Part shown: in pieces, positions 9,003 through 34,500 of the stretch | How positions within the stretch are numbered: position 1 is the first letter of the stretch | How the letters are laid out: each line of letters opens with the position of its first letter | Assembly: GCF_023055435.1 (NCBI RefSeq) | Contig: NW_025964372.1 | Coordinates: 8,060,001-8,124,000, forward strand | Length of the DNA: 64,000 bases | Reading direction: 5' to 3' | DNA from: Haliotis rufescens | Taxonomy: Eukaryota | Program-made: the position numbers and the translations under genes | The notes under the pieces: generated by a model | What the model saw: only the letters and a program-made list of their open reading frames with translations | What the model was told of the DNA's origin: nothing | The model's database searches: none

Positions 9003-9699
9003 TGTAGCAGGTTAGGGTGGTGCAAATATCACAGTTAAGACCAACGCCTGCTGGGGGTGAGATGCGACCAAAAAGCCACAAGTTTATTTTCCATTCCAAT
9101 ATTCACCATGGAACATAATTGAACAAATAATAAATAAATAATTATACTCATTAAAACATTGCACTTATCACCGTTATTTATATAATAATTAAAATGCATT
9201 TACATTATTATATGATGTTATCCATATTACTTCAACTGTATCAATGCACTTTTATATACAAGATGTATATTATACATACATGAAATATAAACGATGAATA
9301 ACTAAATTATTATGCCTACCGAATGTATGGCACTCAGGTGATAGTAGGCCAAATCACTCGTCACTCAGATCCATCTATAAATAACATACACATGTCATTC
9401 TAACTTTAATATAAATATCATAAAATAATATACATAGTAATCTACTGCCATATTAATTCAATTTAAACCTACTACCAACATTATCTCAAATAGAATGTCA
9501 CAGATAAACCTACATAAATATACACATTACCTATGCTGTAATATGCTCATAATTATACACAACACACATTTCTCATGGCAAACAATATGGCGGACACAAA
9601 TACTTATATCTGTCGCCTTTATCATAAAAACATATTATAGTACATTACATCAGAGAATCATAAACATGAATGGTGTGTTTATTATCGTTACTGTACTTA

Positions 9700-10520
9700 C
9701 ACAGCAAAAAAAATGCAGTTTCCGGTATCCGGATACCTTCCGGATACCACCGGACACTTACCCAAAACGCGTCAGGGTATCCGGTGGCAGATACCTTGCC
9801 GGATACCAGATCCGTGGTATCCGGCATGGACACCTCACCTGAAAGTATGTCACCTGGAATCCGGGTATCCGGCACCGGATACCTCACCGGATACCTCAAT
9901 CTGGGTGTCCAGGGATCCGGCACCGGATACCTCATTCTGAGTTTCCAAAAACATGTCACAATTTGGGGGGTGCATTTTGTTCAATTAAGTGTGAAACACC
10001 TAAAAATATATTGGAAACTAACCATGAAAATTGAACATTGCTGAAGGTATCCGGCAGGTATCCGGCAGGTATCCGGATGCAATTTGTCGAGATGTCTTTC
10101 TCCTAGTAAATAATGTTAGCCTGGGCATAGCAGATAGCTGTAGTAATATTCTGTGTTATTTTAGTTGTAAATATCCCCTTGAAGTTGAGATCTATGGGCA
10201 TGTACTTTTGGTGAAAACATTTTTCAAGTTCATATATATTTCATTTTAGATGTTCAGCGTATTAAATGAAAAGCATTCAGTCCTGGTATGATGGTATCCT
10301 TACATTTCATCTTCATATTCCCAGTTTGTTCTAGCCTGGTGGTTGAAGCGTTCGATTCACCACATCGGTACATTGCTTGGTGTCACCCATCATGATATTG
10401 TTGGAATTTTGCTCATAAAGTGGCATAACACCATACTCACTCTGACAAAAAAATGAAAGTCATTGGCTATGTGCTCACTTGGGCCTTTGTTCCTGGTGAG
10501 ATTAAAAGATTATTTTGGAA
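9700..10520 (+). repeat. Left long TIR with dense GGTATCCGG/CCGGATACC subterminal motifs (small SINE inserted ~10333-10445)
   Basis: Reverse complement of ~16360-17098; similarity is high in the outer ~500 bp and decays inward. Confidence 0.9.
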
Positions 10521-12685
10521 CTGTTTCAATACTTGTTACATCTTGACAGACGAGTTTCATTGATGGTTGAAACAGCATATCATTAACCCAAATGGGTGCA
10601 TAAGACTAATGGCACCCACAGAAAACACCTAATAAAGCACTGGTACATAAAAATATCAATGTAACTTTTCTAATGACATGGAACTAAAAACTTCGTTCAG
10701 TGAGCTGTATTAATTGTAGGAAAACATTCAGGGCATTAGTATATTTGATTTATGTTAGCACCTATGTTATGAATGATCAATATCATATTTCTTTAAAGAA
10801 GAAAAACAAAAAAATTGTTAAGATAAAAAATCATATTTATTGATTTTATGACATTTCATTGGTTCAGTAACCAGAGGTGTTTGCAAGAACATTCAAAAAC
10901 AGAAACAGATGCTTCAATGCCATTTTCTAAATAAACAAATTAGTCAAATCTCAGAAGAATTTCAAGGTAGAAGAATATTTAAAGTCAATTATGTTGGTGC
11001 AGTAAACCACAAAAGTCATTCAGATTTGTATATTCAGCGTCAGTGTACACCACATAAACATAGTCTCACTGCTGTGGTATTAATTCCTTTAGACTTGATT
11101 AATGTCGTAATTAAACAACCTACGGAATCACACTGAATCACACTGATGTGGCATTATTCATTCAGAATCATCACTTTCTGAGGTGAACCTGTTAGTTGTT
11201 CTGGGGAAGATTATTCTGCATCCGGAGAGTCCTTTGTATGACTTGTCTGATCTGGTGTCACTGTGAAATCCAGGTGCCTAAAACAATTTATAACATCTTT
11301 AAAAGCTTGTTATTAAAAATATAAGAAACACACATATATTGACAAAGGGTAAAAAGTTGGTTTCTCAATGAGTAAGGTAATGACAATTTATCAAGCAACT
11401 GTTAACCAAACCATGTTAACCAGTGTAAAAAAGCCATAGCAAACAGTATGTAAAATTGTAATTGATCTTCTGAAAACAATTCCTGTAGTACGTGCCATAA
11501 GGCAGGCTCACCTGAATTTTTCTCAAATGTTTGCATTACATCAAAAACATAAGGAAGGGTAAACAAGGCAATGCAAATTGCATAAAATAGGTTCTTATAC
11601 ATAAAAACAGAACTACCATATTTGACGTAATAAGCGCCTCACTCTAATAAGCGCCCACGGGAATATTTGCTAATATATTGGCTAGTGAACAATCCCAATT
11701 AGCACCCTTTCCAATTGATCAATGTATACAAGACTTATTTATTTGCGTATAATACACACTCGTGTGTGATATGCATTATCATATTTTTATCATTTATCCA
11801 ATATTTAATTAAAATTAACAATAACGGGAAAAACTGCCAAATATATTGGTCAAGTGTAATCATAATTTAAGTAGTTCTATTTGGTTTTGGAACTTTTCAT
11901 GGGTAATTGTAAATATATGTGTATTCCTATTTGAATACTCATTTGATTGTTATAAAGTTACACAGTATTGCATCTATCGTCTGTTTCTAAATACAGTGGA
12001 ACCCATCTTTGACTTGTGTGACATAATTGAATCATACCCCAAGTTCATTATGCATTGTTATGCATCTGCACAGAGTGGTCAAAGTCCTTGTCACACACAT
12101 AGTTTGCTAGTTTCAGGTTGTATCCAGACAAACTGTCTGATAATCTCGAGTATGGTCTTGGTAGCATCAAGGGATGTAGCTAATCCTAAATAAACATTAA
12201 ACAAGTGACATAATCTCTTCTACAGAACACTTGATCAAAGCCTGCCCCACCTTTGATGTTTATCATCTCGTTACGCTCACAACAGCTCATTAGCAAGATG
12301 AACTCAATGTCAACTCATGGTGGATTAGGGATTAACAGGGCATTTAGTGTCAGGTGGGTATTATCACTTGCAATTGTCTGTTAATTACTTAACTGAGTAG
12401 TGACGGCTTAGTTAGTTTCCAACCACACTGACTGCTATGCTACTTATCAAGTCAGTTTACTGGTAACATGTTTCTGTGGACCAAGGAAATGTATCATGCC
12501 AGATACTTAAAAAGTTCTACTCATAAGTAATAAAATAATGACAGTTTTAATTTGCAATTCTCCCTACAAAGACATGTATGTATATATTCCTTACCTTAAT
12601 GTGTCACTTCAGCTGCCAGCATGACCTCAGCTGCAATCTCAATATTTGGCCAATTGTGACGAAATGACCGATCGTGTTCAGTGTA

Positions 12686-12831
12686 TAAGCTGGGCCTCGT
12701 CTCCAATATAACTTGGCGCAAGTTGACGACGCGCATAGAGAGCCGGGAACCAGCTTATGTCGTGTTAACCTGGTTCCCGGCTCCCTATGCGCATAACAGT
12801 ATTGTGATATTAGAGACGGGGGCCCAGCTTA
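12686..12831. repeat. 146-bp nested imperfect palindrome (MITE-like)
   Basis: Outer arms TAAGCTGGGCCTCGTCTCCAATAT / ATATTAGAGACGGGGGCCCAGCTTA; inner arms GCGCATAGAGAGCCGGGAACCAG / CTGGTTCCCGGCTCCCTATGCGC. Confidence 0.85.
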
Positions 12832-12894
12832 GTGTTAACCCGGAACAAGCCATTTTACCCATTTCCCCTACGGTCCAGGGCGCCATTTTAGAAC

Positions 12895-15169
12895 ATGGAT
12901 GTAAACAAACCTCGTGTATCGATATACACTGTCATGCTTGATAACGATAAGCTTACCTCGTGTATCGATACATTGTTCTCATTCACCTCCACCACGGAAA
13001 TGCCAGCCGAAGTTCCTCTCAGCCATCCACAAAGCGGAAGTCAACAGTATTTTGAAAGGCGATTGTCATTGCCAGGTACGTAGCAGGGCTTCGAGACCTT
13101 ATGATTTCTGTGCAGAGACCTTATGGAACGGATTGATTTAGATATTTTCCTGCTCTACATACTTTACCGTAAACGCCAAGGGTCCTTTTTTTAGTATTAT
13201 GGTATTATGGTCAACTATTTGTTAGCATAAGGGGCGTAATGGATTTGTGGTCAAAACAAGATGATCCAAATTAGATCCGCTTTTTATAGATAATGAAGAA
13301 AAGTACAAAGATCTAGGAACGATTATTAACTCTAAACTTTCGTGGGATGCTAATACAGACTATAATTTACAATAATGGCCACCAAAGACTTTACTTTTTT
13401 TACACTTAAGATATTTTTATAATATACACTGTTATGCCCTTGTTTTGTATAAGCTTCATAACTTAATAATTCAATATTTCATGGAATGACTCTGACCTTG
13501 GCGAGGATCTTTTTTGCAACAAGTGATTCCCTATGTAAAGTGTATGTTGAATGACCCTGGCTTTGTTGTCAAATAATTGTTTGACAGTTGTTACATATGG
13601 GGTTATGTTTTATCTTTGAATGCTTGGGATGAAATATTTTAATAAGGACAGTTCTATGTTGGAAACTCAACTGGGGCCTTTTCAATTGAATTCAATGTAC
13701 AGCATATACAGTTTGGACATTTCTGTAATGTGAATGCCACTTATGTTTGCAGAATGTCTGGATGAATGAATGAGTCAGTCATCTGCACAGCATCAATGGA
13801 AAAAGGGAAGCAATGAGGAACAAGAGAAGAGTAGCAGTGAGTGGTAAATATTTGAAATTATTCTGTTTGGTTCATCATGTTCATGTAGCTATTCTGCAAA
13901 TATTTCTTCAGTTTGCTTGTTCTTTATCACCTGTTGGCATGGATGGCCTAATTATCAAAGGCACCACAACTTGCTGTGCATAGTTGCATCTCTTGGGCTT
14001 GACAGAAACCGATGGTCGTGGGTTTGAATCGAGGGTAGCATCATACACTTGCTTGTGGGTTTCATCAAAGTGGTAAACATGTAAGACCTGCATCACTTCA
14101 GGCTTTCTTCCCACATCAAGCTTACATGCCGTGATATAACTGGAATACTGTTCAAAGAGGCGTTTAACCCAATTCACTCATTTAACACCACATCCAGCAA
14201 TAGTTCGGCTAAATGACAAGGATTATAAATAATCAAATCTCAAATCTCAACTAGACAAACCAGTGATTAATGTTATGAGCTCGATCCAGACGCACCGATG
14301 ATGACTGTTATGGACAACATCCCACGTTATTGGGTACGATTACGAGCAATCAATGAGCCCACTTGCTACCTCATCTATTACTTTGGCTTGTATGGCAAGC
14401 ATAGGTTGCTAGGAACATTTTTAAGAGATGTCAGTTAATGATTGTTTCAACTCATCAGCATGGAACAATATATATCTCAAATGTTTGGTATATAACAAAA
14501 CTCAAAGATGATAAATTAAGTGAATTTGCTGCCTTTTATCTGTAAGTACATGTTGCAACAATTCTTTTCTATTGCTACAATCTTTATACATAATTTTGCA
14601 GAAACTGAAGTCCAGCTTGAGATACCCGGATGACAGGTTGACAGTCTGGAAGGACCCTTCCAGATATCCGAAGGGATTGGCAGACAGCGATGAGGAGAGT
14701 CCTGTTATTTCAATGGGAGCCTACCGAGAAGTTATTTGCCAATTGACACTGGGACACACTCACAAAGGCTGGTCTGGCTAATGTGAGAAGACCAACCAAT
14801 GCCAAGTCGGAGTGGGACCCTTCAAGGACGTTGAAGAAATTATTGTCTTTGGCCATGTGGTAATCACTTGAAAGGAATGATGTTTGCGACTACTTGTCTA
14901 TAAATGTGGACCCAAACACCAAATAGAATGTTCACAATTCTACTAACACAATGCAACAGGGATGGAGCCCATCTGGCCTCCCCTCATCCTGGTTCCTGTT
15001 TTTCCATGGCAATATAGAAGGAAAAAGATGTTTGAGGGCAAGTAACTCTGAACTGGTGAGCATGGTCTGCTGATGCTTTCAAGCGAACAGTTATCCCGCT
15101 CTGTTATGAGAATTGAAGAATAGGAGCATCAGGAACCATTATGTGAACACTGTTCAATGTGTGATATAG
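12895..15169 (+). pseudogene. Decayed 3-exon cargo gene of the CMC element (~260 aa reconstructed, family unknown). Exons 12895-13075, 13753-13836, 14602-15169
   Basis: Phase-0 GT-AG junctions, AATAAA at 15177-15182. Frame is restored by removing a 46-nt insertion bounded by a 16-nt duplication and allowing one more frameshift. The five internal stops can all arise by single C>T changes. Confidence 0.6.
13990..14420. mobile_element. Two degenerate SINEs, tail to tail, in intron 2 of the cargo gene
   Basis: + copy with GGTTTGAATC B box and ...cactca tail (same family as 28160-28400 and 45362-45644). The - copy resembles the 8884/42570 SINE. Confidence 0.55.
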
Positions 15170-15430
15170 GCATATAAATAAAAGAAATTGATAATTTGTT
15201 TGTTGTTTATGTTTCTTTAGCCAGCTGTGCAAATGGGGATTTTCCAATATTTTGCCTCAGTTTGATAGCCACAGTTATCGTATGAAACCATGCATTGCTT
15301 GGACATCTTTGGAATAACACATTGATCTGCTATGTCAAAGGTCAATGTCATAGCCAGACAAACAAATTGTTAATGGCCAAACTCTTCCTTAGGGCAGGGA
15401 TAGAAGTTGGCAACAGGTCATACACTTACT

Positions 15431-16061
15431 TTTTATCCCCCCCCCGGCATATAATACGGGGGGATATAGCGATCATCTGTCTGTCCGTCCGAAATCATTT
15501 CCTTTTCCGGGGCAGGATTCCCAAACCATTCAGTGTATTTGATCGAAACTTGGCAAATCTATCCGGCACATACTGAAGTGGTGCCTTTTGATATTTTGGG
15601 ATTTTTCTAATTTTTATTTTTTTAAATTTTATGGAATGAAGTTGGACATAGACTTAATTGACGATGGGGTTCGTTTCCGGGGCAGAATTCGAAAACTATT
15701 CAGTGTATTTGATCGAAACTTGCCAAAGGTATCAGGCACATACTGAAGTGGTGCCTTTTGATATTGTGGGATTTTTCTAATTTTTATTTTTTATTTTTTT
15801 TATGGAATGAAGTTGGACATAGACTCAATTGGGGATGAGGTTCGTTTCTGGGACAGAATTAAAAAAAAACATTCAATGTATTTGATCAAAACTTGGCATT
15901 CATATGGATGCGACCATGGTGGATCTTTTGTAGGTAAACAATGTATGATTCTTAAAGAACTTTAAACTTTTGACTCATTACATACAGAATTGCACATTTA
16001 CTAGTGGTTACTTTACAGACAGCTGCCGGGGGGATATGTCATCTTTCTGATGACTCTTGTT
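15431..16061 (+). mobile_element. Helentron-associated interspersed element (HINE/DINE-1/pearl-like)
   Basis: T-rich start, subTIR TATCCCCC..CCGGCA and its inverse TGCCGGGGGGATA near the 3' end, GTCY microsatellite, ~2.4 tandem ~170-bp cores, 3' hairpin GTCATC-tttct-GATGAC, end CTCTTGTT. Confidence 0.75.
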
Positions 16062-16359
16062 CTCTAATTTGCCTTTTCCTGCAGAAGTCTAAATAACTCT
16101 TATACATATAGTTGTATATCATTGTCATATGTTTGTCAATATTACACTGAATGAAGCACTTAACAATTGTTTTTGAAATAGTCGCAACTGATATTGAAGG
16201 TCAAATTAGCTTTCAATGTCTTTCAGTAAAAATGTTCACAGTAACTGAGGAACAGCTCTCGGTAGTGTGATGAAATCTGGTACATGTCACCCTCAGAGTG
16301 AGGCATATTGTGTTTCAAACTTAAATGAAGCTGGTATGCTCATAACAAGTACTTGTACC

Positions 16360-17098
16360 TTTACAAATAATCATATTATCATCTCACTAGGACCAAAGGC
16401 CCAAGTGAGCACACAGTCGATGAGTTGATACTTTCACTCAGAACAATCCGGAAGTCTGAACATGAAATTTAAGGATATCATCATACATGTATTAGAACTG
16501 ATGTTTGTTCATTAAACATCTTAACATCTAAAAAGAATTATAGATGAAATTGATAAAAATGTCTTCTCCAAAAGTACATGCCCATAGATCTCAACTTTAA
16601 GGGGATATTTACAACTAAAATGACACAGAATATTACTACAGCTATCTGATATGCCCAGGCTAACATTATTTACCAGAAATAAGACATCTCGAAAAATTGC
16701 ATCCGGATACCTGCCGGATACCTGCCGGATACCTTCAGCAATGTTCAATTTTCATGGTTAGTTTCCAATATATATTTAGGTGTTTCACACTTAATTGAAC
16801 AAAATGCACCCCCCAAATTGTGACATGTTTATGGAAACTCAGAATGAGGTATCCGGTGCCGGATTTTTGGTATCTGTGCCGGATCCTTGGACACCCAGAT
16901 TGAGGTATCCGGTGAGGTATCCGTGCCGGATACCCGGATTCCAGGTGGCATACTTTCAGGTGAGGTTTCCATGCCGGATACCACGGATCTGGTATCCGGC
17001 AAGGTATCTGCCACCGGATACCCGGACGCGTTTTGGGTAAGTGTCCGGAGGTATCCGGCAGGTATCCGGATACCGGAAACTGCATTTTTTTTGCTGTG
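16360..17098 (-). repeat. Right long TIR
   Basis: Inverted copy of 9700-10520; mirrored spurious ORFs such as MNIAEGIRQVSGRYPDAI occur on opposite strands. Confidence 0.9.
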
Positions 17099-17575
17099 TT
17101 ATGACATAAATTACATTCATACACTCAAATCACACAAGTATATCTACACTAAAATAATGTTTACATTATACATGCTGTACTAAAACAAATATTACATCCT
17201 ACATAATGTTTATAATCTAGTATTAAAACTAACCTTTGGAGATTTATAGTGAAGATGAAGCCGTGAAAGTCCTTGGCACAATACGTGTCAAAATATGAGT
17301 CTCATGTCGTGACTGTCCAGAGAGAGCTGTATATAGTAGACTGACTTAGTGCCTGTGTTAGTATAGAAGCTTGCCCTCTAAAAGCAAGACAAAAGAATAA
17401 TCTGAAAAGAATTGCCCCTGACAATAAACAAAAGAACTTACCAGCCCAAGTTCAGCTTGGAGCAATCAGGTTGGAAACTTGTACCGTACATGATCTAATA
17501 AAATACACCAATTACACTGTCTAAAACCAATACCATATATATATACAGATAAATTATAGAAATGACATTGCCACA

Positions 17576-17590
17576 CACTTCCCCCCTTCG
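17576..17590 (-). promoter_or_regulatory. Polypurine tract of Gypsy (also ~61653-61667)
   Basis: CGAAGGGGGGAAGTG directly before the TG of the 3' LTR on the minus strand. Confidence 0.85.
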
Positions 17591-17683
17591 ACAAATGACG
17601 TCCTCGTCATCATAGCTTTCCTGTTACCAGATTCACAAGAGCTTCTGATGCCTGGTCACATCTGCTTGCTACGACTCCTGTGG

Positions 17684-20600
17684 CTATGAACGAACTAAGG
17701 TAATCTGCTCTTGATTTCCAGTCTGGCTTTGGTGTTGTGTCGTCGCCATCACATACTTCCCACTCGTCTGCCAGTGCGGTTTCATCCTTTCTCTCTGTGA
17801 CCTCCTAAGTTGTGGGGTAGGTAGCATCCTCCTCCTAGGTGTGTCGTCAGGTGTGGTCACTGTTGGTGGTGGTTCAGGAGTGTCTGCTTCAGTCTGCACA
17901 TCCTCTTGTGCAGAAGCATCTACATCCTCCAGCAACAAGTCGACAGGTGGTATGGGCGGTCCAGGAGCTTCGGCTTCAATCTGCACATCCTCTTGTACAG
18001 AAAAGAATCGACTTCTTCTTGCAACAAGTCGACAGGTAGTATGGGCGGTCCAGGAGCTTCGGTTTCAATCTGCACATTCTCCTGTGCAGAAACCACGACA
18101 TCACCTGGAGTACCCACAGTCACATCCACGTCATCTCTGGCTCTCTGTAGGTCATCTAACCTGTGATCCTCAATCAGAGCGACGTCTGTAACAACTTCAG
18201 TTTCACCCTCAGGTGGCCCATCAGCTGGTACACCAGCTGAAACTGAGGGTTCTGATGAGGTCACGGGCCCAATACAAATATCATCATCTGAATCTTCCTC
18301 TTGATCCTGGCACAAGTTCTCCGTAACATCCTGAGTTGATAATCCGGATGGAGCACTTGATGTCTTGTATTTCTGATAGGGTCTTTCAGTAGGGACAGGT
18401 GCCTTTTGAACTGGTAGTGGCAGACATCCTATGGGGAGCAGTAGATTCCTGTGGAGAGTCCTCCGTTTCCCATCATCTCTTTCCTTTCTTACCACAAACA
18501 CAGGTATCGCAGGATCAGGCTGTTTGAGAATTACGTAAACATTCTCCTCCCATTTATCTGCGATCTTGTGTTTCCCATCAAAAGCGACGATCTTTACAAG
18601 CACTCTGTCTCCAACGTCCAACATGGCAGCTCTAGCTTTGGCGTCATAGTTAGTCTTCTGTCTTGTTTGGGATTTGTCAGCAGCTTCAGCAGCAAGTTCG
18701 TACGCATGTTTCAGTCGGTCTCTCAGGGACTTAGTATATTCCGACAGGGACTTGGCCTTGCTTGGGTCGATCTCCAGTCCAAAAGCTAGGTCAACAGGAA
18801 GTCTTGGATGTCTACCGTACATGAGGAAGAATGGTGAGTATCCAGTCGTCTCATGTCTTGTAGAGTTGTATGCATGTACAAGAGGACCTACATGGCTCTT
18901 CCAGTCCTTCTTCCCAATAGCATCCAAGGTTCCAAGCATATTAAGTAGAGTCCTGTTGAAACGTTCACATTGACCCTTACCCATAGCATGGTAAGGAGTA
19001 GTTCTCGACTTGTCGATCTGTGTGAGACTGCACAACTCCTTCATAAGCTTTCCCTAAAAGTTCGCTCCTTGGTCCGAGTTGATCCTCTTAGGTAGTCCAT
19101 AGTTAACCACAAAGTTCTTGAAGAATACTTCGGCTGTTGTCCGAGCAATCATATTCTTAGTGGGATAAGACTGGGCGTAGCGGGTGAAATAATCTGTGAT
19201 AACTAGTATACACTATTGTCCTCCCTTGCATGGTTCCAATGTCAGAAAATCCATACAGACTAACTCCAAGGGCTGGGTGGTCTTGATACTTACTAAAGGT
19301 GCTTTCACTGTTGTGCCGCTCTTCCTCCTAATGCATCTTTCACACTGGCTGACATAGTTCTCTATGTCCTTAGTCATTTCAGGCCAGAAGAAGCGATCCC
19401 GATTAAGAGAATTAGTTCTATCACATCCGGGATGTCCAACTTTGTCATGGAGGCAGCGCAGGACTGATTGGCGACATCTACTTGGCAGAACAAGTTGCTC
19501 GCAGGTTTCACCATCCACTGATATAACTCGGTAAAGGACTCCTCTTTGATGTTTGAAGCTTGAAATGTTCTTATTGAGACCACTCATCTCAGGATCTGCT
19601 CGACAATCACTTGGTCTTGGCTTAGTTCCATTCCTCAGATGGGCCATAACAGTATCCAAGGCTGGGTCTCTGGCTTGGGCTCTTCTCCAGTCTCGGGCAT
19701 TGGCATCACACTTCTCATCACTTATTTCTACTTCCTGCTCCTGAATAATGGCTGATGAAACAGATACACCCTCCACGAGACTAAGGGTAGATGTCATGTT
19801 GCAGATAGCATTGATGGAATGTGATGAAATCTGTCTCATAGTCGACTGATCCTCGGGTGTTGGAAGTCGTGACAACGCATCAGCATCAGCATTGTACTTC
19901 CCAGGCTGGTATGATATCGTGAAGTTATAGGCTGAGAGTGCTGCCAACCATCTATGCCCTGTTGCGTCCAACTTCGCACTGGTGAGCACATATGTCAGAG
20001 GATTGTTGTCTGTTAGCACTGTGAAGTCATGTCCGTAAAGATAGTCATGAAACTTTTCCGTGACGGCCCATTTCAAACACAAAAATTCCAATTTGTGAGC
20101 AGAGTAATTTCTTTCAGACTTGTTTAGGCTCCTACTGGCATATGCAATAACTTGCTGATGTCCTTCATGCGTCTGATATAACACGGCACCAAGACCTCGT
20201 GTGCTGGCATCTGTATGCAATTCGAAAGGCTGGGAACAGTTTGCATATCCTAGAACAGGTGGTGATGTTAATCTGTTCTTCAAGTCCCTGAAAGCCTTTT
20301 CCTGGTTGGGTCCCCAAATCCACTGTACAGTCATCTGATCCTGTCGTGATCGATGTTTCTTGCCTTTCGTCTTAGGCATCAGCTCTGAGAGGGGTTTCAC
20401 AATCTTGGAGAAGTCCTGTACAAATTTTCTATAATATCCGGCGAAGCCAAGGAACTTTCTAACTTCTTCAGAACTTGTCGGTGTAGGCCAGTCTCTAATC
20501 TTGTTGATCTTCTCCGGGTCTGCTTCGATTCCATTTTTAGAAACGATGTAACCAACATACTTGACTTTATTCTTGAAGAACTTGCATTTCTTGGGTGACA

Positions 20601-22106
20601 ATTTCAAGCCGCATTCCCTGAGACGTTGAAACACAAGCTCCAGGCGTTCAAGATGTTCTTCATAGGTCTTGGAGAAGATTATGAGGTCGTCAATATAAAC
20701 AAGACATATCTTGAGATGTAATCCTGACAGGCAGTTTTCCATCAATCTCTGGTAGGTGGCTGGCACATTACATAAGCCGAACGGCATTCGATTAAACTCA
20801 TAAAAACCTAGTGGTCCAACGGTGAATGCTGTTCGTTGTTTGTGTTCTTCTTTGAGTTCAACTTGATGGTAACCGGACTTCATGTCAAGGACAGAGAAAT
20901 ATTTCATGCCGCCGAGACAATCCAACATCTCTTCAACTCGAGGAAGCGCATACGAGTCCTTCAATGAACGATTATTCAGCTGGCGATAATCCACCACATC
21001 CTTAGTTTTCCATCAGACTTGCGCACAAGAACAACGTTGGATGACCATGGGCTATGTGATTCACTTATCACTCCAGATGACAACAGTTGTTGAAGGTGGC
21101 TATGAACTTCATACATGGCAGGAGGTATTCTTCTATGGCGTTGCTTAAATGGAATGTCGTTGGTCAAGTGGATGCGATGTCTTACAGCAGAACTGTGTCC
21201 CAAGTCATCATCTCCCTTGGAAAAATATGTCCTTGAACTTGAGGATGACTCCAAGTCCTAAGTCCAGTTCCTCTTGAGATATGCTCTTCTGCTCTATATC
21301 AACTTGTTCAAGCAAGCGCTTCTCATCTTCTGACTCCAATGGCATCAGTCCTTTAAACATGATGGGTTGAAGCTCGCATAGCAGTGCTCTTGGTCGTACA
21401 ACAACTGTCTGGGTAGTGACGTTGGCTACGTGCACATAAACTTCGCTAGGGTGCTCAAAGTTGAAGTCTACGATGGAGGGAGCAATGTCAAGGTCACTTG
21501 GAATCGCAGCGTTGTCAGTCGGTTGGATCAGTGCACATACTTTAGGAAAGTTCACATTCTTCACTACATTGCCTCTGATGACTACTTGACTGTTGGCAAC
21601 ACCATACTGTGGAAAGCCAAGTACCAGGGTGTATGCAGTGCAGCCTTCTGTAGAAACTGGACACAATGTGTGTTCTTGCATCCTTCCAGTAGGTGGCATA
21701 AGATGTTGGTCCCAAGTAACGCAGGCACTTTAGAATTAAACTGGGTGTCTGTCGATACAAGAAACAAACAAGAAACCAGTTTGGCTGATGCTATCCCAGA
21801 TGTTTCCAACTTGACATCCACATATCCTGTATAAGGTAGCGACTCTCCTCCAGCACATTCGATGTTCAAAATGTTATCAAGTAGCTCCAAAGGTACATGC
21901 TTTAAGTAGGAATCATAGAAGGTCTGTGATAATATAGACACTGTAGCTCCTGTGTCTAGAAGTGCTCTTGCCTTTACCCCTTCAATATGAATGTCCACTT
22001 CATTAACGTTACCCACAAGTCCATCGGGGATTCCTTTTTCCCTATCTCTGGGGCGCTTGTAAAAACCTACAGGCGGCCCCTGCCCATAGGCCTGCGCGAG
22101 TTTAAA
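17684..22106 (-). pseudogene. pol: Gypsy pol (protease-RT-RNase H-integrase), disrupted by frameshifts and stops
   Basis: LLDTGAT; LDMKSGYHQ, MPFGL, YIDD; LHTDAS, LEFLCLKWAV; H..GHPG..CERC; MDFL, SDQG, QCERFNRTL. Split across ORFs 21582-22118, 21208-21699, 20976-21254, 19213-20997, 17920-19044, 17684-17986. Confidence 0.95.
22100..22106 (-). promoter_or_regulatory. Candidate -1 ribosomal frameshift heptamer TTTAAAC at the gag/pol junction
   Basis: X XXY YYZ slippery site just after the zinc knuckle, followed by GC-rich sequence. Confidence 0.6.
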
Positions 22107-23151
22107 GCACTTCCACATCTAGAATGGTCCAGTCTAACTGTGCATGTGTGTTGAGTATGTCCAGCCAGTCCACATCTCCAACAGGTGGGCCCCATTACCC
22201 TCTGTGGTCTGTACTCCATGTCTTGAGCTTGTCCATATGAGGCTTGGCAACCACCTGATCCTTCATTCCATGGTGGCCTATAGGAATCGTAGCTAGCGTG
22301 GCCTTGATCCTCTCTCGACTGCTGTCTGTTTCAGTTAGGGGGTCCACTTGATGGCATTGACCTCTGATCCGGGGCAGGATAAGGAAACTCTTGCTCTGTT
22401 GCACTTGTTAATCTCATCCCAGCAACTTCAGAAGTAAGCTTGTTGATCATAGCTTTCATTTCCTTAATCTCCTTCTTCCACCCAGGCTCCTGTGCAGTGG
22501 CACTCTTTGCTGTTCCTGGTGTCTTTGTCTTAGCAGATGGGACTGTGCTCAACTGATCTCTATCTCCCGGAGAGCTTCTAACAGGTCATCAAAGTTATTG
22601 ATGGTATCAAACTTGTGTCCTGAGATGTTCTTGAGGTCTGACTTGAGTCCTGTCCAAAGCATACTCCTAAGCATCTCATCAGAATCCTCATTGCTGGTCG
22701 GCTTATCCTTTAGGGCACGGGAAAGAAGTTCCTCCAAACGACAAGCCCACTGTGACACATCCTCCTCTTCCTTCTGTCTAGCGCTATAAAACTGTGCCAT
22801 CCTTAATTCCCTCCCCTCGACTACTCCAAAAACAATACTGAGCTTCCTTAGCAGGGATGAAATACTGGTCCCAGGCCTCATGTTGACGGCGATCGTAGCA
22901 GCCTCTCCCTTCAAGGAATCCTTGATTGCCTGTTCCTTAATATCCTGTGTATAAGATGAAGATTCCAAAAGCCCATCAACACGATACCTCCAGACGTCAT
23001 AAGGTGTTTCCTTCCCAGTCCTGTCTCCACTGAATGGGGGAATTCTAGGAAACCTATGATGATTCATAGCACTAGCCTGAGCTCCATTTCCTGTGTCAGA
23101 AGAGTTTGATTTCTGTTCCACAACTGGTTTAACCTCAGTCTTAACTGACAA
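22100..23151 (-). pseudogene. gag: Gypsy gag (PNMA-like capsid, CCHC knuckle), frameshifted
   Basis: PFSGD..ETPYDVWRY..SLKGEAA..QKEEEDVSQWACRLEELL; knuckle CWRCGLAGHTQHTC at ~22142-22183. True start codon not located. Confidence 0.85.
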
Positions 23152-24525
23152 TACATCCTGTAGCCAAGATTGGAAATCCTCAGGAGAATTAGCCTTGGGT
23201 TTCTCCTTTCCACGCTTAAATGCTTCCAGAATATTGTCAATTTCCGTCTGAGAAAACTCAATGATTTACCGAAGAGTGAGCACAGAATATAATAATCAAA
23301 GAATTCCAAAATCACAAACTCATACAATGCAAGTAGAACTCACAAATTCCAAGAAATCGCACAAGATGTCAAGAAACCAAGCAACCCCACCTGATCAAAC
23401 CTAGTCCAAGTTCAAACTACAACACACAAACAATACCAAACCAATGAAAAGAGTCCAGTACTCCCACTCAGTGAGGGTGATACATCTCACTGAGGATCAA
23501 TGACAAACACAAACTGTTCCATAATGAACTTCACAATATAACAGAACACTTCAGATTTATAAACTCATCTGCTGAAAATTGAAAAACAAATATGGTCAAT
23601 AAAGAACTTCACTTACGAAAGGTTCCACTGAGTAAATAAAAAAAATAGATATATGGTTACATGGTGCAACGTGCATATACTGAGTGCGGCTAAGGTAATC
23701 AGTCAAGTCTGTCAGTCAGAAAGAGAGACAACACAAGCCACTTATACCTACATAATTACAGAAAGTTTAACACCTTATTATAGATAAGCTTAAACCTACT
23801 CACTTTTATTACACAGTCACACAAACTCACTTCAACCAAACACGCATTGCAAGGTAATATAACTAAGTAAAGTAACTAAGGCATGACAGATAGGTAATAT
23901 GGTGATCACCAACTAGTAGGGTACCCTTAATGACAAAGGTAACTAATGTAACTAAAGTAACTAACTAAAGTAACTAAATAAAGTAACTAACAAAACTCTA
24001 AACTAACTAAACTCTAAACATCAATATCTATTTCACAAGTGAAAAACTAATAGCTGCATTCAATCACATCTTAATTATGAACACAACTAAGAAATGGTTA
24101 AGTTTAATTTACAAAACACAAATACTTATAGTTGATGAAATAGTATCACATCTTGTCTAACAATGACAAGATAATCCAATATATCAAATTTAAATTACAT
24201 ATTATCAGACAAATTTAGCACAATATGATTACCTTATGGGTATATAATTTGTGAATTTACAAATACATAAGTAGCAAGTTACACTGCTCCATGACAAATA
24301 CGCAATTAATATATATAAACTGTGATCACATGATCACGAGAAAGATAGAACAAAGCGATCCAAAGACACTGAAAGCTGACGTGCAATGTCAGACGCGTAC
24401 GCGGCCAAGATTACATAGTGTCACAGTAAATTACAAGTAGAGCTCTACTATATACTACTAACACGTATGCGAGTACAGCTGATATCTCACTGATGTGGCA
24501 CCTCACTCTCCTCTTTCGTCAGTTT

Positions 24526-24543
24526 TCCTCACCGGGGGCTCCA
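24526..24543 (-). promoter_or_regulatory. Primer binding site
   Basis: TGGAGCCCCCGGTGAGGA, 3 nt after the 5' LTR; complementary to a tRNA 3' end (most like elongator Met, not confirmed). Confidence 0.85.
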
Positions 24544-24546
24544 TTT

Positions 24547-25702
24547 TGTAGCAGGTTAGGGTGGTGCAAATATCACAGTTAAGACCAACGCCTGCTGGGC
24601 GTGAGTTGCGACCAAAAAGCCACAAGTTTATTTTCCATTCCAATATTCACCATGGAACATAATTGAACAAATAATAAATAAATAATTATACTCATTAAAA
24701 CATTGCACTTATCACCGTTATTTATATAATAATTAAAACGCATTCACATTATATGATGTTTTCCATATTACTTCAACTGTATCAATGCACTTTTATATAC
24801 AAGATGTATATTATACATACATGAAATATAAACGATGAATAACTAAATTATTATGCCTACTGAATGTATGGCACTCAGGTGATAGTAGGCCAAATCACTC
24901 GTCACTCAGATCCATCTATAAATAACATACACATGTCATTCTAACTTTAATATAAATATCATAGAATAATGTACATAGTAATCTACTGCCATATTAATTC
25001 AATCTGAACCTACTACCAACATTATCTCAAATAGAATGTCACAGATAAACCTACATAAATATACACATTACCTATGCTGTAATATGCTCATAATTATACA
25101 CAACACACATTTCTCATGGCAAACAATATGGCGGACACAAATACTTATATCTGTCGCCTTTATCATAAAAACATATTATAGTACATTACATCAGAGAATC
25201 ATAAACATGAATGGTGTGTTTATTATCGTTACTTTACTTATGACATAAATTACATTCATACACTCAAATCACACAAGTATATCTACACTAAAATAATGTT
25301 TACATTTAAATGCTGTACTAAAACAAATATTACATCCTACATAATGTTTATAATCTAGTATTAAAACTAACCTTTGGAGATTTATAGTGAAGATGAAGCC
25401 GTGAAAGTCCTTGGCACAATACGTGTCAAAATATGAGTCTCATGTCGTGACTGTCCAGAGAGAGCTGTATATAGTAGACTGACTCAGTGCTTGTGTTAGT
25501 AAACAAGCTTGCCCTCTAAAAGCAAGACAAAAGAATACTCTCGCCCCTGACAATAAACAAAAGAACTTACCAGCCCAAGTTCAGCTTGGAGCAATCAGGC
25601 TGGAAACTTGTACCGTACATGATCTAATAAAATACACCAATTACACTGTCTAAAACCAATACCATATATATACAGATAAATTATAGAAATGACACTGCCA
25701 CA
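24547..25702 (-). repeat. Gypsy 5' LTR
   Basis: TGTAGCAGG...TGCCACA; differs from the 3' LTR by scattered substitutions and small indels. Confidence 0.95.
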
Positions 25703-27116: not shown

Positions 27117-28159
27117 TTAATATATAGTAAACAACTGCTTTCCCGAAATATTTTATATTACTCCTATTTCCCTTTCATTCACAATCCCATAGTAGTCATA
27201 GCATCTTTTATTATAGCAGCAAAATCTATACATATAGGATATATTAAGGATTTTACGAAAAGCCTTCCCCTCCACCAAATAGATGCGTTTTAACTAGTGA
27301 CCTTATAACAACCATTGGCGAATCCTACATTTACGTGTTATGTTATAAGGGAAATTATTACTGCTTATACTGCACAATGATTATGCCACTAAACCTGGAG
27401 CCAAATTTATGCATGTATAACCTATTTCAATATTTCCATAAAAGATGGGTAGGTATTTTTTCTTGTTGTGATGTCAAATTCACAAATCACTGCAGTATCA
27501 ATACAGAAAAAAACCTACATGACATCATCCTACTCATTGTTTTCATCACATAATTGGGACCTTTAGTAAAACTTCACAAGGTGCGATGGAAGGAGGTTCG
27601 TGTTGTGTGTCGTAACCGGTTCCACTATTGGTATGAGCACCAACCTTTGCGCATTTGCAGATACCTGTAGACGGGAGTCAAGTTAAAGATAATCGTATCT
27701 CCATCGTTGAAGAATTCGAACTGAACCCAAAGCCATCTTACAATCGTGCAAAGATCGGTTTGTGCAAGTGGAATAGGACAGTTGTATGGTGGCTCTAAAG
27801 TTGATCTTCGGCGCCTAAAATCGCTTGTAACTAAGATTGCTCTGTACATGTGGGCCGACACAGAGCATAACGAAAGCGTGAAAGAACGGTATAAAGCCAA
27901 ACTGTAGTGGCGTTAGCTGGAGACACGCCAGTCTGCGGTCTGTGTCGTGTTGGGAATCGGCGGTCCGGGTTACAGTTCGTCTCCCAGGCCTATCCTTATG
28001 GATATTTTGCCATTGTGGATGCGCCTGTTTTTACATATAGTGCCCTATGGCGGATTGTATGTACCTTCACAATGAATTCCAATAGGCCCATTGGACTCTC
28101 CAACATCAGAAAGATGAATAGAGACTTGTAACATATTAATAGACTTTATGATTGAGTGT

Positions 28160-31500: not shown

Positions 31501-34500
31501 AAATGGTAAATCTTCTGACAACGTTTTGACGAACTCACGAACTCGATCATATATCTTTTTCATAGCCAGCCATTCAGAAGTGTATCGTACCCATCCTGAT
31601 GTTGAAGCGAGCCACAAAACCTCTGCTTGTCACTGAACCGTCGGTGACAAATCTCAGCACAACCTCACCAGTTCCGTTCACTGTAACAGAAACAGTGGAA
31701 CCTATTGACAAGAGAGCCCAATTCAAAATAAATATCTGGTGAAGGTTTTGATTTCATGTAGTGCGTTACTACAACGTTGAACTCTCATTTGATATCGACC
31801 ACTTCTCTGAGCTTACCTTGCCTCCCGTTAATTGTACTTCCACACCATCTTCGTCCACCATTGATCTGAACATAATCGTAGGGACATCCATTACCGCCCT
31901 CGAGGTCGAAGGTGGTGAAGTTGAAGTGAATACTGCTGTTCCTGGGCACATTGAAGACGTAGCTGCAGTTGAGGTTGTTCTGGTAGTCCTCCCCTGTACC
32001 AGGCAGGCTCTGGATCATGCCTTGGTCAGCAAGGGTAGAGAAGGTGCAGTTGCGATGGCTCCTGGGAACACCCCCTTAAACACAAAGATAGGCTTCTATC
32101 AGGGGAAGACAGCTCAATAGTCTTGTAGCATGTATGTTTGCATGTTGTCATTCAATGCATGGGACATGGACGACGACATCTCGTCAATTCAGAATACAGT
32201 CATATCATAAATTACTCGAAATAAGTCTGATGTATTCATAAAAATCCGTACAAAGAGGGAAATATAGCATGGCCTAGGACATACATAACCGAATCTCACT
32301 GTGAAATGTTGGACTTCCTCATACATGTATATAATATCTGTGTGAAATGTAGACAAGTCGTAGGCATCCCCATGGGTACCAGTTGTCCTCGAAATTACCT
32401 CATCTGTTTTTTATGCATACGAGTCAGGATTTATGCTCGGATTGGCAAAATGAAAACACGGAAATTTGGCCAAAAAGTATAACTTACGCTTCAGGTATAT
32501 GAATGATCTCATATCTTTGAATATTTGTCAAATAACCAATTACCTTCCACTGATTTGCTCACCTGAGCCGGAAATAATAGATACCAGTGAAACCACTACA
32601 TCTGTTTCATATTTAGATATATGCATAATAATTCAGTATTCACAATACTACGATACGAGCGAGCAATATTACAATGTTTATCTCCATTTCACAATCAAGC
32701 ATCCTTTTTCTCCTAAGATTTCGAAGAGCGTCATACGACTCTTGCTCAAAGGTTGTTTTTTTCAGGGTTAATACAGTCATGGCATCAGTAAAACTTTCAA
32801 AATATTTATGGTAGGATATCTAAAAAAATGATGTATGATGCAATTCCTTATTTCATTTGTATCATATGTACCTGTTTGTTTCAGATGAGCATATGACTTG
32901 TCTTTGCATGTGTTTGTGATGGTGTCAGTCGGTTACGCTCATCTGTTCGTTAACACCTAGTATCCTCACTATTTGGAAGTGGTTAATAAAACATGCTTAT
33001 GATATGATCGGAATCTCAGAATGGACTTATCGTTATGGAAAAGCCCTTTTTTCATTCAAATAAATATTCAAATGCTATCCTGTCCGCTCTGTGGTTCAAC
33101 GTTCTACTTAAACCTACTGACGAAAAGCTGGTCGGGAAGAGTAGTTGTCACGATTTGTGTCTTCATTTTCGATGAGACAAAGTTCAGTGAAAACGGAAAA
33201 GTTTCTTGTTTCATATATAGCCTTTAAAATCAACTATGAAACTATATTTACGAGATTCATTTCCGGTGGTTTCGGGAGAAGATGTTGCATTGTTGTAGGG
33301 AAAGGTAAAATTCGGTGAAGACGAGTTTGTCACGTTCAAGGACGGAGTGGTGCTGTAATTCAGGGAAGGCGAGGCTGTCACGTTCAAGGACGGAGTGGTG
33401 CTGTAGTTCAGGGAAGGCGAGGCTGTCACGTTCAAGGACGGAGCGGTGCTGTAGTTCAGGGAAGGCGAGGCTGTCACGTTCAAGGACGGAGCGGTGCTGT
33501 AGTTCAGGGAAGGCGAGGCTGTCCCGTTCAAGGACGGAGCGGTGCTGTAGTTCAGGGAAGTCGAGGCTGTCACGTTCAAGGACGGAGCGGTGCTGTAGTT
33601 CAGGGAAGGCGAGGCTGTCACGTTCAAGGATGGAGTGGTGCTGTAGTTTAAGGCTGGCAGAGAACTATTTTCTTCAGATACTGTATCCATGAAAACAAAT
33701 TTAGAATATGTTGGAATTTGACGTCATACCTTTTGCATACAGAAAAACGATGGAAGTTGAAATTTGTTTTGCGTTCTTAAACCAATACAGTATGTACACA
33801 CCTGGGAGAGTGATATATAAGACATTGATGCCACGACCAACAATAGAGGCGTCACTATGGAAACACAACTGGAAACTGTCCGTACTGTTGACTGAAAAAC
33901 CAACATGGTACAATCATTCATTATTAAGTAAGTTGCTGATTGGAGTATAAAACAAGATGTCTATTTAGTATTGTTGCGATGGTGAGTCTTTCAGCACATC
34001 ACAAACAGGTAGATTGATAGGTCTGTGTAAGGTTTCTATATCTGAATAAGGTATTGTTGATAAACAAGTATTTCTATATGGTCATTTAAAAAACAATTTG
34101 ACGGATTAGTACTTTGAGCATATAAATATAAAACGTATATCGTAATAGTGTGCCACTGACTACTCGATGTGAATATTGTTGTATATCCTGGAGGTATACT
34201 GCCGCAACGTGTTGCGTTCACAACGGAGTCAAGCTGGTGAATTCTAACACTTTGCAAAACAAAGAATTGAAAAGAAAACCCAAAGAAAATATATTCTTCC
34301 TTACACGATCTAATGTATCCGAAATCCTTCGTGCCACAGTCGATCTCGGTAATACCGTCACTTGTTCCATAGGTAACATAGTCATAACTGCAGCGAGGAC
34401 CTTGCTCAATGTCAAAGACACTAAACTCCAGATCGACCGTGAAAGAACCGCCAAAGTAAGGACGGAGCTCGAAGCAGCAGTCTTCGTTGTTTTGGTATTG

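Follow-up and report, generated by a model that had tools for sequence, protein, structure and literature searches.

The stretch of DNA analysed here (the window, 64 000 nucleotides of Haliotis rufescens; assembly GCF_023055435.1, contig NW_025964372.1, positions 8,060,001–8,124,000 of the forward strand) contains a transposable element at window positions 9700–17098. The element starts with CACAG, finishes with CTGTG and has terminal inverted repeats (TIRs) of ~630 bp that are 89.7% identical with gaps. TTA flanks it on both sides, and a single TTA with no element is seen at the paralogous positions 25211ff and 61149ff. Only 22 of 4725 and 17 of 2825 bases differ between its two flanks and the closest empty paralogue, so the insertion is recent; the insertion point is one long terminal repeat (LTR) of a Gypsy-type retroelement, itself within a tandemly repeated gene unit with CUB domains. 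None of the open reading frames (ORFs) examined in the element encodes a transposase, and the exons of the window, searched in translation against Pfam and PDB sequences, return no matches. The ends, the TIRs, the TTA duplication, the empty sites and the missing transposase ORF all bear out the non-autonomous CMC element of the original prediction: it is a young non-autonomous member of a CACTA/EnSpm family and a dSpm-like deletion derivative. Our overall reading, to which we give a probability of about 0.88, is that the element carries a broken copy of its own accessory gene, likely moves with a transposase supplied in trans and likely owes its outer ends to a second CACTA family.

The window element belongs to a ~9.05-kb subfamily (Y) of 100+ copies. 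A sister subfamily (E, ~12.05 kb) is ~80% alike and identical in layout, and both are non-autonomous. Searching genome G000 with the last exon gives 284 candidates, of which 40 were scored (96–100% identity), and the terminal 19-mer of the element has 423 exact matches in the genome (control, 0). A 3-bp target-site duplication (TSD) of varying sequence (CAA, TGT, AGT, AGG, TGC, TGG) is present in 11 of the 12 Y and E copies fetched. Thirty Y copies show pairwise differences of 0–2.7% (mean 1.4%), and two of them (Y3 and Y5) are 0.19% apart and have different TSDs. All 150 matches listed for the originally predicted last-exon frame carry at least three stops, and 29 of the first 30 loci have no ORF of 110 aa on either strand (the single exception lies within a nested repeat); for these reasons no intact Y copy is recognized. 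The stop-free stretch of an older copy (L033) has no homologue among 17 candidates. The Y family is also present in sequencing runs under three organism labels (A, B and C) and therefore likely predates or crosses a species split. Nested, nearly intact long interspersed nuclear elements recur in E copies (L059–L065, L039 flank).

Searching G000 for PF02992 transposases gives 49 matches among 56 candidates, with open frames of 673–857 aa. One match, 3.7 kb from an E-type terminus, belongs to family A, which is 20.6 kb long and has four copies that are 99.6–99.7% alike; all three copies having both exact ends are flanked by 3-bp TSDs. The transposase frame of family A [857 aa; PF02992, 52.3 bits (cut-off 28.6), E = 5e-14] carries DDE, C(2)C and H(3)H motifs; the accessible part of PMC12730594 gives DDE, C(2)C and H(3–4)H for CMC-group transposases. 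The right TIR is 93–98% like that of subfamily E, which is evidence for family A as the parent. Head-to-head with the transposase gene lies an accessory gene of six exons with GT-AG introns, and these exons give an open 302-codon frame in three of the four regions examined (the fourth region stops short of the gene). The product is P0006, a 313 aa H. rufescens protein named ‘uncharacterized’ at NCBI. The ratio of non-synonymous to synonymous differences (pN/pS) in accessory exon 5 is 0.30 against each of two diverged A-related copies, C124 and C90, and by this measure the exon is under purifying selection. In the family A copy C108, a 5-bp deletion (L083:6021–6052) throws the first accessory ATG out of frame; the ATG is intact in the three other copies. 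Behind the family A transposase stop comes a tandem array with a 63-bp unit, its copy number varying (L084:5818–6747 and equivalents); one unit of it is left in Y and E.

Family B (C112, C582) is a second one, with its two genes arranged as in A. Identity between B and A is 57–60% for the transposase, 36–41% for the accessory exon and 68–70% for transposase DNA. The B transposases are split or stopped at C112, C582 and C235 (97 of 146 candidates scored), that of B112 being almost complete and broken into two frames. The B-specific end has four exact matches in the genome. B112 and B582 are ~5% apart, the family A copies 0.3–0.4%.

The window element is colinear with family A at 61–77% DNA identity; the matching blocks run from the transposase-side end, the 3′ repeat unit and the beginning of the main transposase exon to the start, exon 4 and exon 5 of the accessory gene. 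Exon 5 of the window is also recovered by a whole-genome search with P0006 (41% identity, E = 1.1e-5). On the evidence of these alignments, the left half is a decayed minus-strand transposase gene, and the cargo is no captured host gene but what is left, in decay, of the accessory gene of the element itself (exons 1, 4 and 5). The parts of the element are as follows.

9697–9699 (right copy 17099–17101), no strand: left 3-bp TSD, TTA.
9700–9948, plus strand: outer part of the left TIR, family-B type, with the CACAGCAAAAAAA terminus and CCGGATACC subterminal repeats (232 of 248 positions identical to the B112 end).
9942–9948 (mirror junction ~16831–16837), plus strand: B/A junction at TTCCAA microhomology (junction pattern with 204 exact matches in G000; control, 0).
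9943–10332, with a weaker inverted match on to ~10540, plus strand: inner part of the left TIR, of the family-A lineage (spacer 93/108 to A108, of family A).
10815–11277, minus strand: last exon of the transposase-gene remnant, AATAAA at ~10836–10841; the main transposase exon contributes its acceptor and first codons, which run into a 3′ region that has a single unit of the 63-bp repeat of A (62–75% DNA identity to A108; joint in three of three contig runs).
12575–12582, no strand: site of a ~1.65–1.69-kb deletion in the window copy, by comparison with full-length Y copies; it takes out an 84-nt middle exon, the homologue of transposase exon 2, which full-length Y copies have.
12595–12800, minus strand: exon 1 of the remnant transcript on this strand, with an approximate 5′ end (spliced joint; homology to A exon 1 not detected by alignment).
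12713–12792, no strand: central palindrome in a likely bidirectional promoter region, as the two divergent transcripts suggest.
12850–13075, plus strand: decayed accessory exon 1, ATG at 12897, 5′ end approximate (homology to the intact gene; spliced joint).
13753–13843, plus strand: decayed accessory exon 4, acceptor and donor both displaced relative to the intact gene (DNA score 116 against a shuffle maximum of 58; tblastn E = 0.003; joints).
14037–14180, no strand: dispersed repeat within the intron, presumably SINE (short interspersed nuclear element)-like (matches at 28152, 45371 and 45645).
14602–14880, plus strand: decayed accessory exon 5, with a 31-nt deletion near 14653 and stops (41% aa identity to P0006; DNA score 179.5 against a shuffle maximum of 68).
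14881–15200, plus strand: tail at the 3′ end of the remnant transcript, non-homologous, with AATAAA at 15177–15182 (no match to the intact gene; contig cover).
15435–16056, no strand: ~620-bp nested insertion with a 170-bp tandem repeat (not in the older Y copies L038, L039, L040 and L050).
16440–17098, minus strand: right TIR; the inside is a copy of the family A transposase-side arm, the outer part (~16831–17098) is of family-B type.

The intact gene also allows the original reconstruction of the cargo to be corrected. ATG 12897 is the true start, as proposed (intact P0006 begins MDVNK), spliced contigs make use of the donor after 13075 and of the two acceptors, 13753 and 14602, and the AATAAA is present. 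The second donor is used at 13844, 7 nt beyond the one predicted (family copy L066). A 16-nt direct repeat does exist at 12909 and 12955, but the 46 nt said to have been inserted between its copies are no insertion, since the intact gene is about as long over this stretch and subfamily E has the two repeats as well. Instead of a frameshift at 14747, the last exon has the 31-nt deletion near 14653, and the homologous frame reads PDIRRDW...HWDTL. The repaired protein is in part an artefact: its last ~95 residues (after ~14880) have no counterpart in the intact protein or in the next intron. The minus-strand transposase remnant had been overlooked. The idea that the left and right genes are inverted paralogues was tried and rejected (score 42 against a shuffle maximum of 51).

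Splice joints were read on the full-length family copy L066 from contigs of three runs, which are RNA by guess only. Two plus-strand GT-AG joints, equivalent to window 13075/13753 and 13843/14602, are found in two of the three contig runs. All three show two joints of the transposase remnant on the minus strand. The second plus-strand donor lies 7 nt beyond the ancestral one. The longest spliced ORF has 65 codons on the plus strand in all 13 Y copies parsed (16 tried) and 46 codons on the minus strand in all nine parsed (of 16 tried, with an arbitrary 200 nt taken as the first exon). The joints, together with ORFs of merely 46–65 codons, indicate that the family makes two spliced, essentially non-coding RNAs. 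A small-RNA run (X19) gives 29 reads, every one partial.

The ends have a different affinity from the body. At both ends the outer ~245 bp of Y are 93.5% like family B, and TTCCAA, common to both parents, joins the B-type outer end to the A-type inner TIR; no match to B is seen for the window body, and the grouping of Y with B is rejected by a 13-row tree of exon 5 (approximately unbiased test, p-AU 0.0097). In the Y clade 20 of 21 copies, the basal L040 among them, carry B-type ends (the remaining copy has no outer end); A-type ends are found in 11 of 12 copies on the E side (again, the remaining copy lacks an end), and A-type termini in C124 and C90. The terminal 13 bp and a CCGGA(T/A)ACC repeat are common to all families, and the subterminal arrays are of CCGGATACC or CCGGAAACC units; CCGGATACC has 13 and 12 copies in the outer 450 bp of the Y ends and three in A (plus eight of a variant). 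The outer ends of Y were likely acquired from family B by an end swap. Likeness to A108 in the TIR spacer and in exon 5, respectively, is 95.5% and 65% for E, 91.7% and 89% for C124, 82–87% and 59–65% for Y, and 73% and 65% for the basal copy L031. A spacer so close to A108 beside an exon 5 of just 65% suggests, less securely, that E too renewed its ends from an A copy of recent date.

We propose an ancestor related to A in which most of the two genes was lost and the transposase-side arm was duplicated onto the opposite end. The Y lineage would have taken a B outer end by recombination or template switching at the TTCCAA microhomology and copied it to both ends, and the E lineage likely refreshed its ends from a recent A copy. 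Movement would be by cut-and-paste with a transposase supplied in trans, which is predicted to bind the CCGGATACC-type repeats.

Two other accounts of the cargo were considered. A Pack-CACTA element, in which fragments of host genes are captured, had been put forward in the original prediction and would explain spliced exons within TIRs that enclose no transposase ORF; P0006 is annotated at NCBI as an ordinary uncharacterized protein, and it has no Pfam match. However, all intact close homologues with resolved surroundings sit in CACAG TIRs beside a transposase, and the intron ends, the 3′ repeat and the transposase exons match family A with their order kept. The exons are relics, in colinear order, of a gene that belonged to the parent element itself; capture from the host is thus unsupported and we regard it as very improbable. 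The other suggestion of the original prediction, an undescribed accessory gene of an animal CMC family, agrees with what was found: four near-identical copies have an intact homologue next to a CACTA DDE transposase, the two enclosed by CACAG TIRs, and more distant homologues lie beside family B transposases. It is also conceivable that selection maintains the spliced RNAs or the 65-codon ORF for a function, such as the regulation of family A. Splicing is retained in both directions, with a minus-strand joint depth of 556–698 against ~33–55 for intronic contigs in run X9, the 65-codon ORF is kept in every parsed Y copy, and pN/pS between the subfamilies in the old frame is 0.36–0.77. Yet the Y copies are young, so conservation among them is expected, the ATG of this ORF is not in subfamily E, other frames too reach a pN/pS of 0.35, the splice sites have moved out of frame and expression is poorly gauged by contig depth; we consider such a function unlikely. 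The Y versus E codon tests in six frames were not decisive.

For the ends, the alternative to a swap is that B-like ends are ancestral, or that the ends of A, E and Y drifted under the constraint of transposase binding. The terminal 13 bp and the CCGGA(T/A)ACC motif that A and B have in common, and the ease with which subterminal arrays expand and contract, would fit such a history. Against it, the 93.5% identity to B spans non-repeat spacers over 248 bp while A and B transposase DNA is 68–70% identical, the junction is sharp and symmetric, and A108, C124, C90, E and the basal L031 all carry A-type termini. We thus think it improbable that no swap took place. Given a swap, the enzyme behind the recent Y jumps is a separate matter. 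We lean towards that of family A, because every B transposase found is broken. At somewhat less than even odds, an intact B transposase absent from this assembly amplified Y recently, and the end swap was a true change of partner; the B-type ends of Y and the near-complete, two-frame transposase of B112 speak for this, but only broken B copies were found and Y copies 0–0.2% apart fit the age of A (0.3–0.4%) better than that of B (~5%).

Several observations weigh against the combined reading of a broken accessory gene under exchanged ends. The exon 1 match is modest (DNA score 96 against a shuffle maximum of 80.5), and exons 2, 3 and 6 of the accessory gene and exon 1 of the transposase gene are not detected in the window element by alignment. 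In exon 5 the window body shares only 59–66% identity with A108; the true parent is therefore not A itself but a relative of it that is now extinct, and the exon-5 tree leaves the position of Y plus E among A108, C124 and C90 open (73/89). In three of five further regions (C124, C90 and C586) the accessory gene is seen with no transposase in the 20 kb fetched, and exon 5 of C157 gives a pN/pS of 0.92, from 12 differences. The search behind the broken state of the B transposases scored 97 of its 146 candidates. The joints, finally, were seen on L066 and not on the window copy, in runs that are taken to be RNA.

A HMMER search of 1.84 billion representatives identifies nine relatives of exon 5, those with names being uncharacterized abalone and oyster proteins, and a word-index search with P0006 finds only P0006 itself. 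The relatives share E-x-x-S-P-D/E-x-S/T-D-D...W-E-S...K...L-D. None of the nine proteins P0006–P0014 has a Pfam match, PF15394 included, and a PF15394 search of G000 gives no candidates. In the Atlas, language-model feature neighbours of P0006 and of the oyster protein P0010 (scores 0.94 and 0.92) fall in clusters with PF15394 in 33% and 29% of members (under half); the other look-alike clusters are mainly from Mucoromycota, Mollusca, Cnidaria and Porifera. The P0010 model matches one whose aligned part is named DUF4616 (template-modelling score 0.70/0.60, 205 residues; both sides are models). We take PF15394 to be the C14orf93 family. A search of the available literature found no paper that joins C14orf93 with ‘transposon’ or names DUF4616, the C14orf93 papers listed being, by title, on human genetics; on partner switching among DNA transposons and on accessory genes of animal EnSpm elements the literature yielded little.

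The AlphaFold models are all-helical and of modest confidence (predicted local distance difference test 61 and 69), with a predicted three-helix bundle followed by a basic helix and the acidic S-P-D/E-x-S/T-D-D motif. Neither model has a Foldseek match at E 0.001 or better, and structure comparison (VIA) gives no Z-score of 8 or higher. A second element-encoded protein with the TnpA role is described for CACTA elements in the accessible part of PMC1636069; TnpA has two helix–turn–helix (HTH) motifs in tandem, each of them tri-helical, and, in the part of the preprint available (bioRxiv 10.64898/2026.08.24.746577), is reported as restricted to flowering plants. By analogy, and at about even odds, P0006 is predicted to be a DNA-binding helper in a TnpA-like role; the fold matches are weak (Z ≤ 6.8), with transposase, homeodomain, Myb and Zeste DNA-binding domains tied with unrelated bundles.

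Other CACTA families also occur in G000. Two further PF02992 families (C68:11.81–11.83 Mb, L089–L090; C112:59.15–59.17 Mb, L091–L092) have a divergent second gene with frames that are BEN-domain-like by eye, so the animal CACTA families of one genome may differ in their accessory proteins. Another CACTA family, with ~25 loci (e.g. C1:57440826, L093–L094), has an intact 917-aa transposase frame and many near-identical copies.

Some smaller features of the element and of its surroundings were noted. A CGCCATTTT motif, presumably YY1-like, stands directly before the accessory ATG (window 12880–12970) and is retained in A, E and Y; two TATCGATA motifs within the 16-nt direct repeat, which we take to be DRE-like, are present in Y, less perfect in E and absent from A. 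The nested insertion at 15435–16056 has short terminal palindromes, occurs in young Y copies only and presumably resembles Helentron-associated (HINE/DINE-like) elements. The Gypsy-type element that received the insertion lies on the minus strand at window 9003–25702 (LTRs 9003–9699 plus 17099–17575, and 24547–25702); its frames comprise a PNMA-like gag, protease, reverse transcriptase, RNase H and integrase in several broken pieces, a second copy runs from 60482 and an empty site is found at ~42689. The whole window (1–64000) is a tandem triplication with a unit of ~17.8 kb and further starts at 33624 and 51481. Each unit holds a minus-strand gene with several CUB-domain exons and mucin-like exons of 21-bp and 48-bp repeats, the mucin-like repeat copy numbers differing between units (17.5 versus 50.5). 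Units 1 and 3 are 99.5% alike, unit 2 is ~95% alike.

Chapaev3 elements have a TWA target preference and a Chapaev-type transposase; this assignment was rejected, as the TSDs vary here and the parent transposase is of the PF02992 type. The element shares with known CACTA/EnSpm elements the 5′-CAC..GTG-3′ termini (CACAG...CTGTG), the 3-bp TSD and the subterminal repeat arrays, as well as a Transposase_21 parent with C(2)C and H(3–4)H (accessible part of PMC12730594) and a second element protein (that of PMC1636069). Unlike those, its accessory gene is a separate head-to-head gene of six exons and not a splice form of the transposase transcript, the TIRs are very long and the ends are chimeric between families whose transposases are 57–60% identical. 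The colinear interior and the lack of an intact transposase are those of a dSpm-type deletion derivative, so the class of element is already known. Pack-CACTA and Pack-MULE elements are alike in being TIR elements without transposase that carry spliced exon fragments, but here the fragments come from the element's own genes and not from the host's. The closest parallel for the ends is Galileo of Drosophila mojavensis, where, in the accessible part of PMC3573991, chimeric E/X copies have one central region under TIRs of different subfamilies, TIRs lengthen through inverted copying of internal sequence, and recombination or conversion is proposed. Galileo belongs to the P superfamily, whereas here a CACTA element has its breakpoint inside the TIR, at a 6-bp microhomology and at both ends, and the chimera was amplified to 100+ copies. 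As a second CACTA protein with a predicted three-helix domain and weak HTH, homeodomain and Myb matches, P0006 resembles plant TnpA and SmTRC-PrA; it differs from plant TnpA, as described in the available source text, in having one bundle rather than two tandem tri-helical HTH motifs, and it has no TnpA Pfam match. Its likeness to DUF4616/C14orf93 is one of Atlas features and predicted structure, with no direct Pfam match. Families A, B, E and Y may be catalogued in Repbase or Dfam, and the accessory family may be in the supplements of the bioRxiv Spm survey (962 proteins).

The question of the cargo gene thus has a fairly ordinary explanation. Of value is a likely exchange of ends between families 57–60% alike, with a base-resolved breakpoint, that founded an amplified subfamily; parent, donor, sister and older copies are found in one genome, so which transposase moves the chimeric passenger becomes directly testable. 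A previously unannotated protein family (P0006 and its oyster homologues) is tied to animal CACTA transposases as their second gene and gives a lead to DUF4616/C14orf93. Tentatively, and with clear doubt, these results might be drawn together in a long-lived non-autonomous CACTA lineage that re-acquires its ends from active families (Y from B, E from recent A), its accessory gene belonging to a widespread CACTA helper family (molluscs, with look-alikes in fungi, cnidarians and sponges) that was the source of DUF4616. If that is true, vertebrate C14orf93/RTFC would be a domesticated CACTA accessory gene, and likely a DNA-binding protein.

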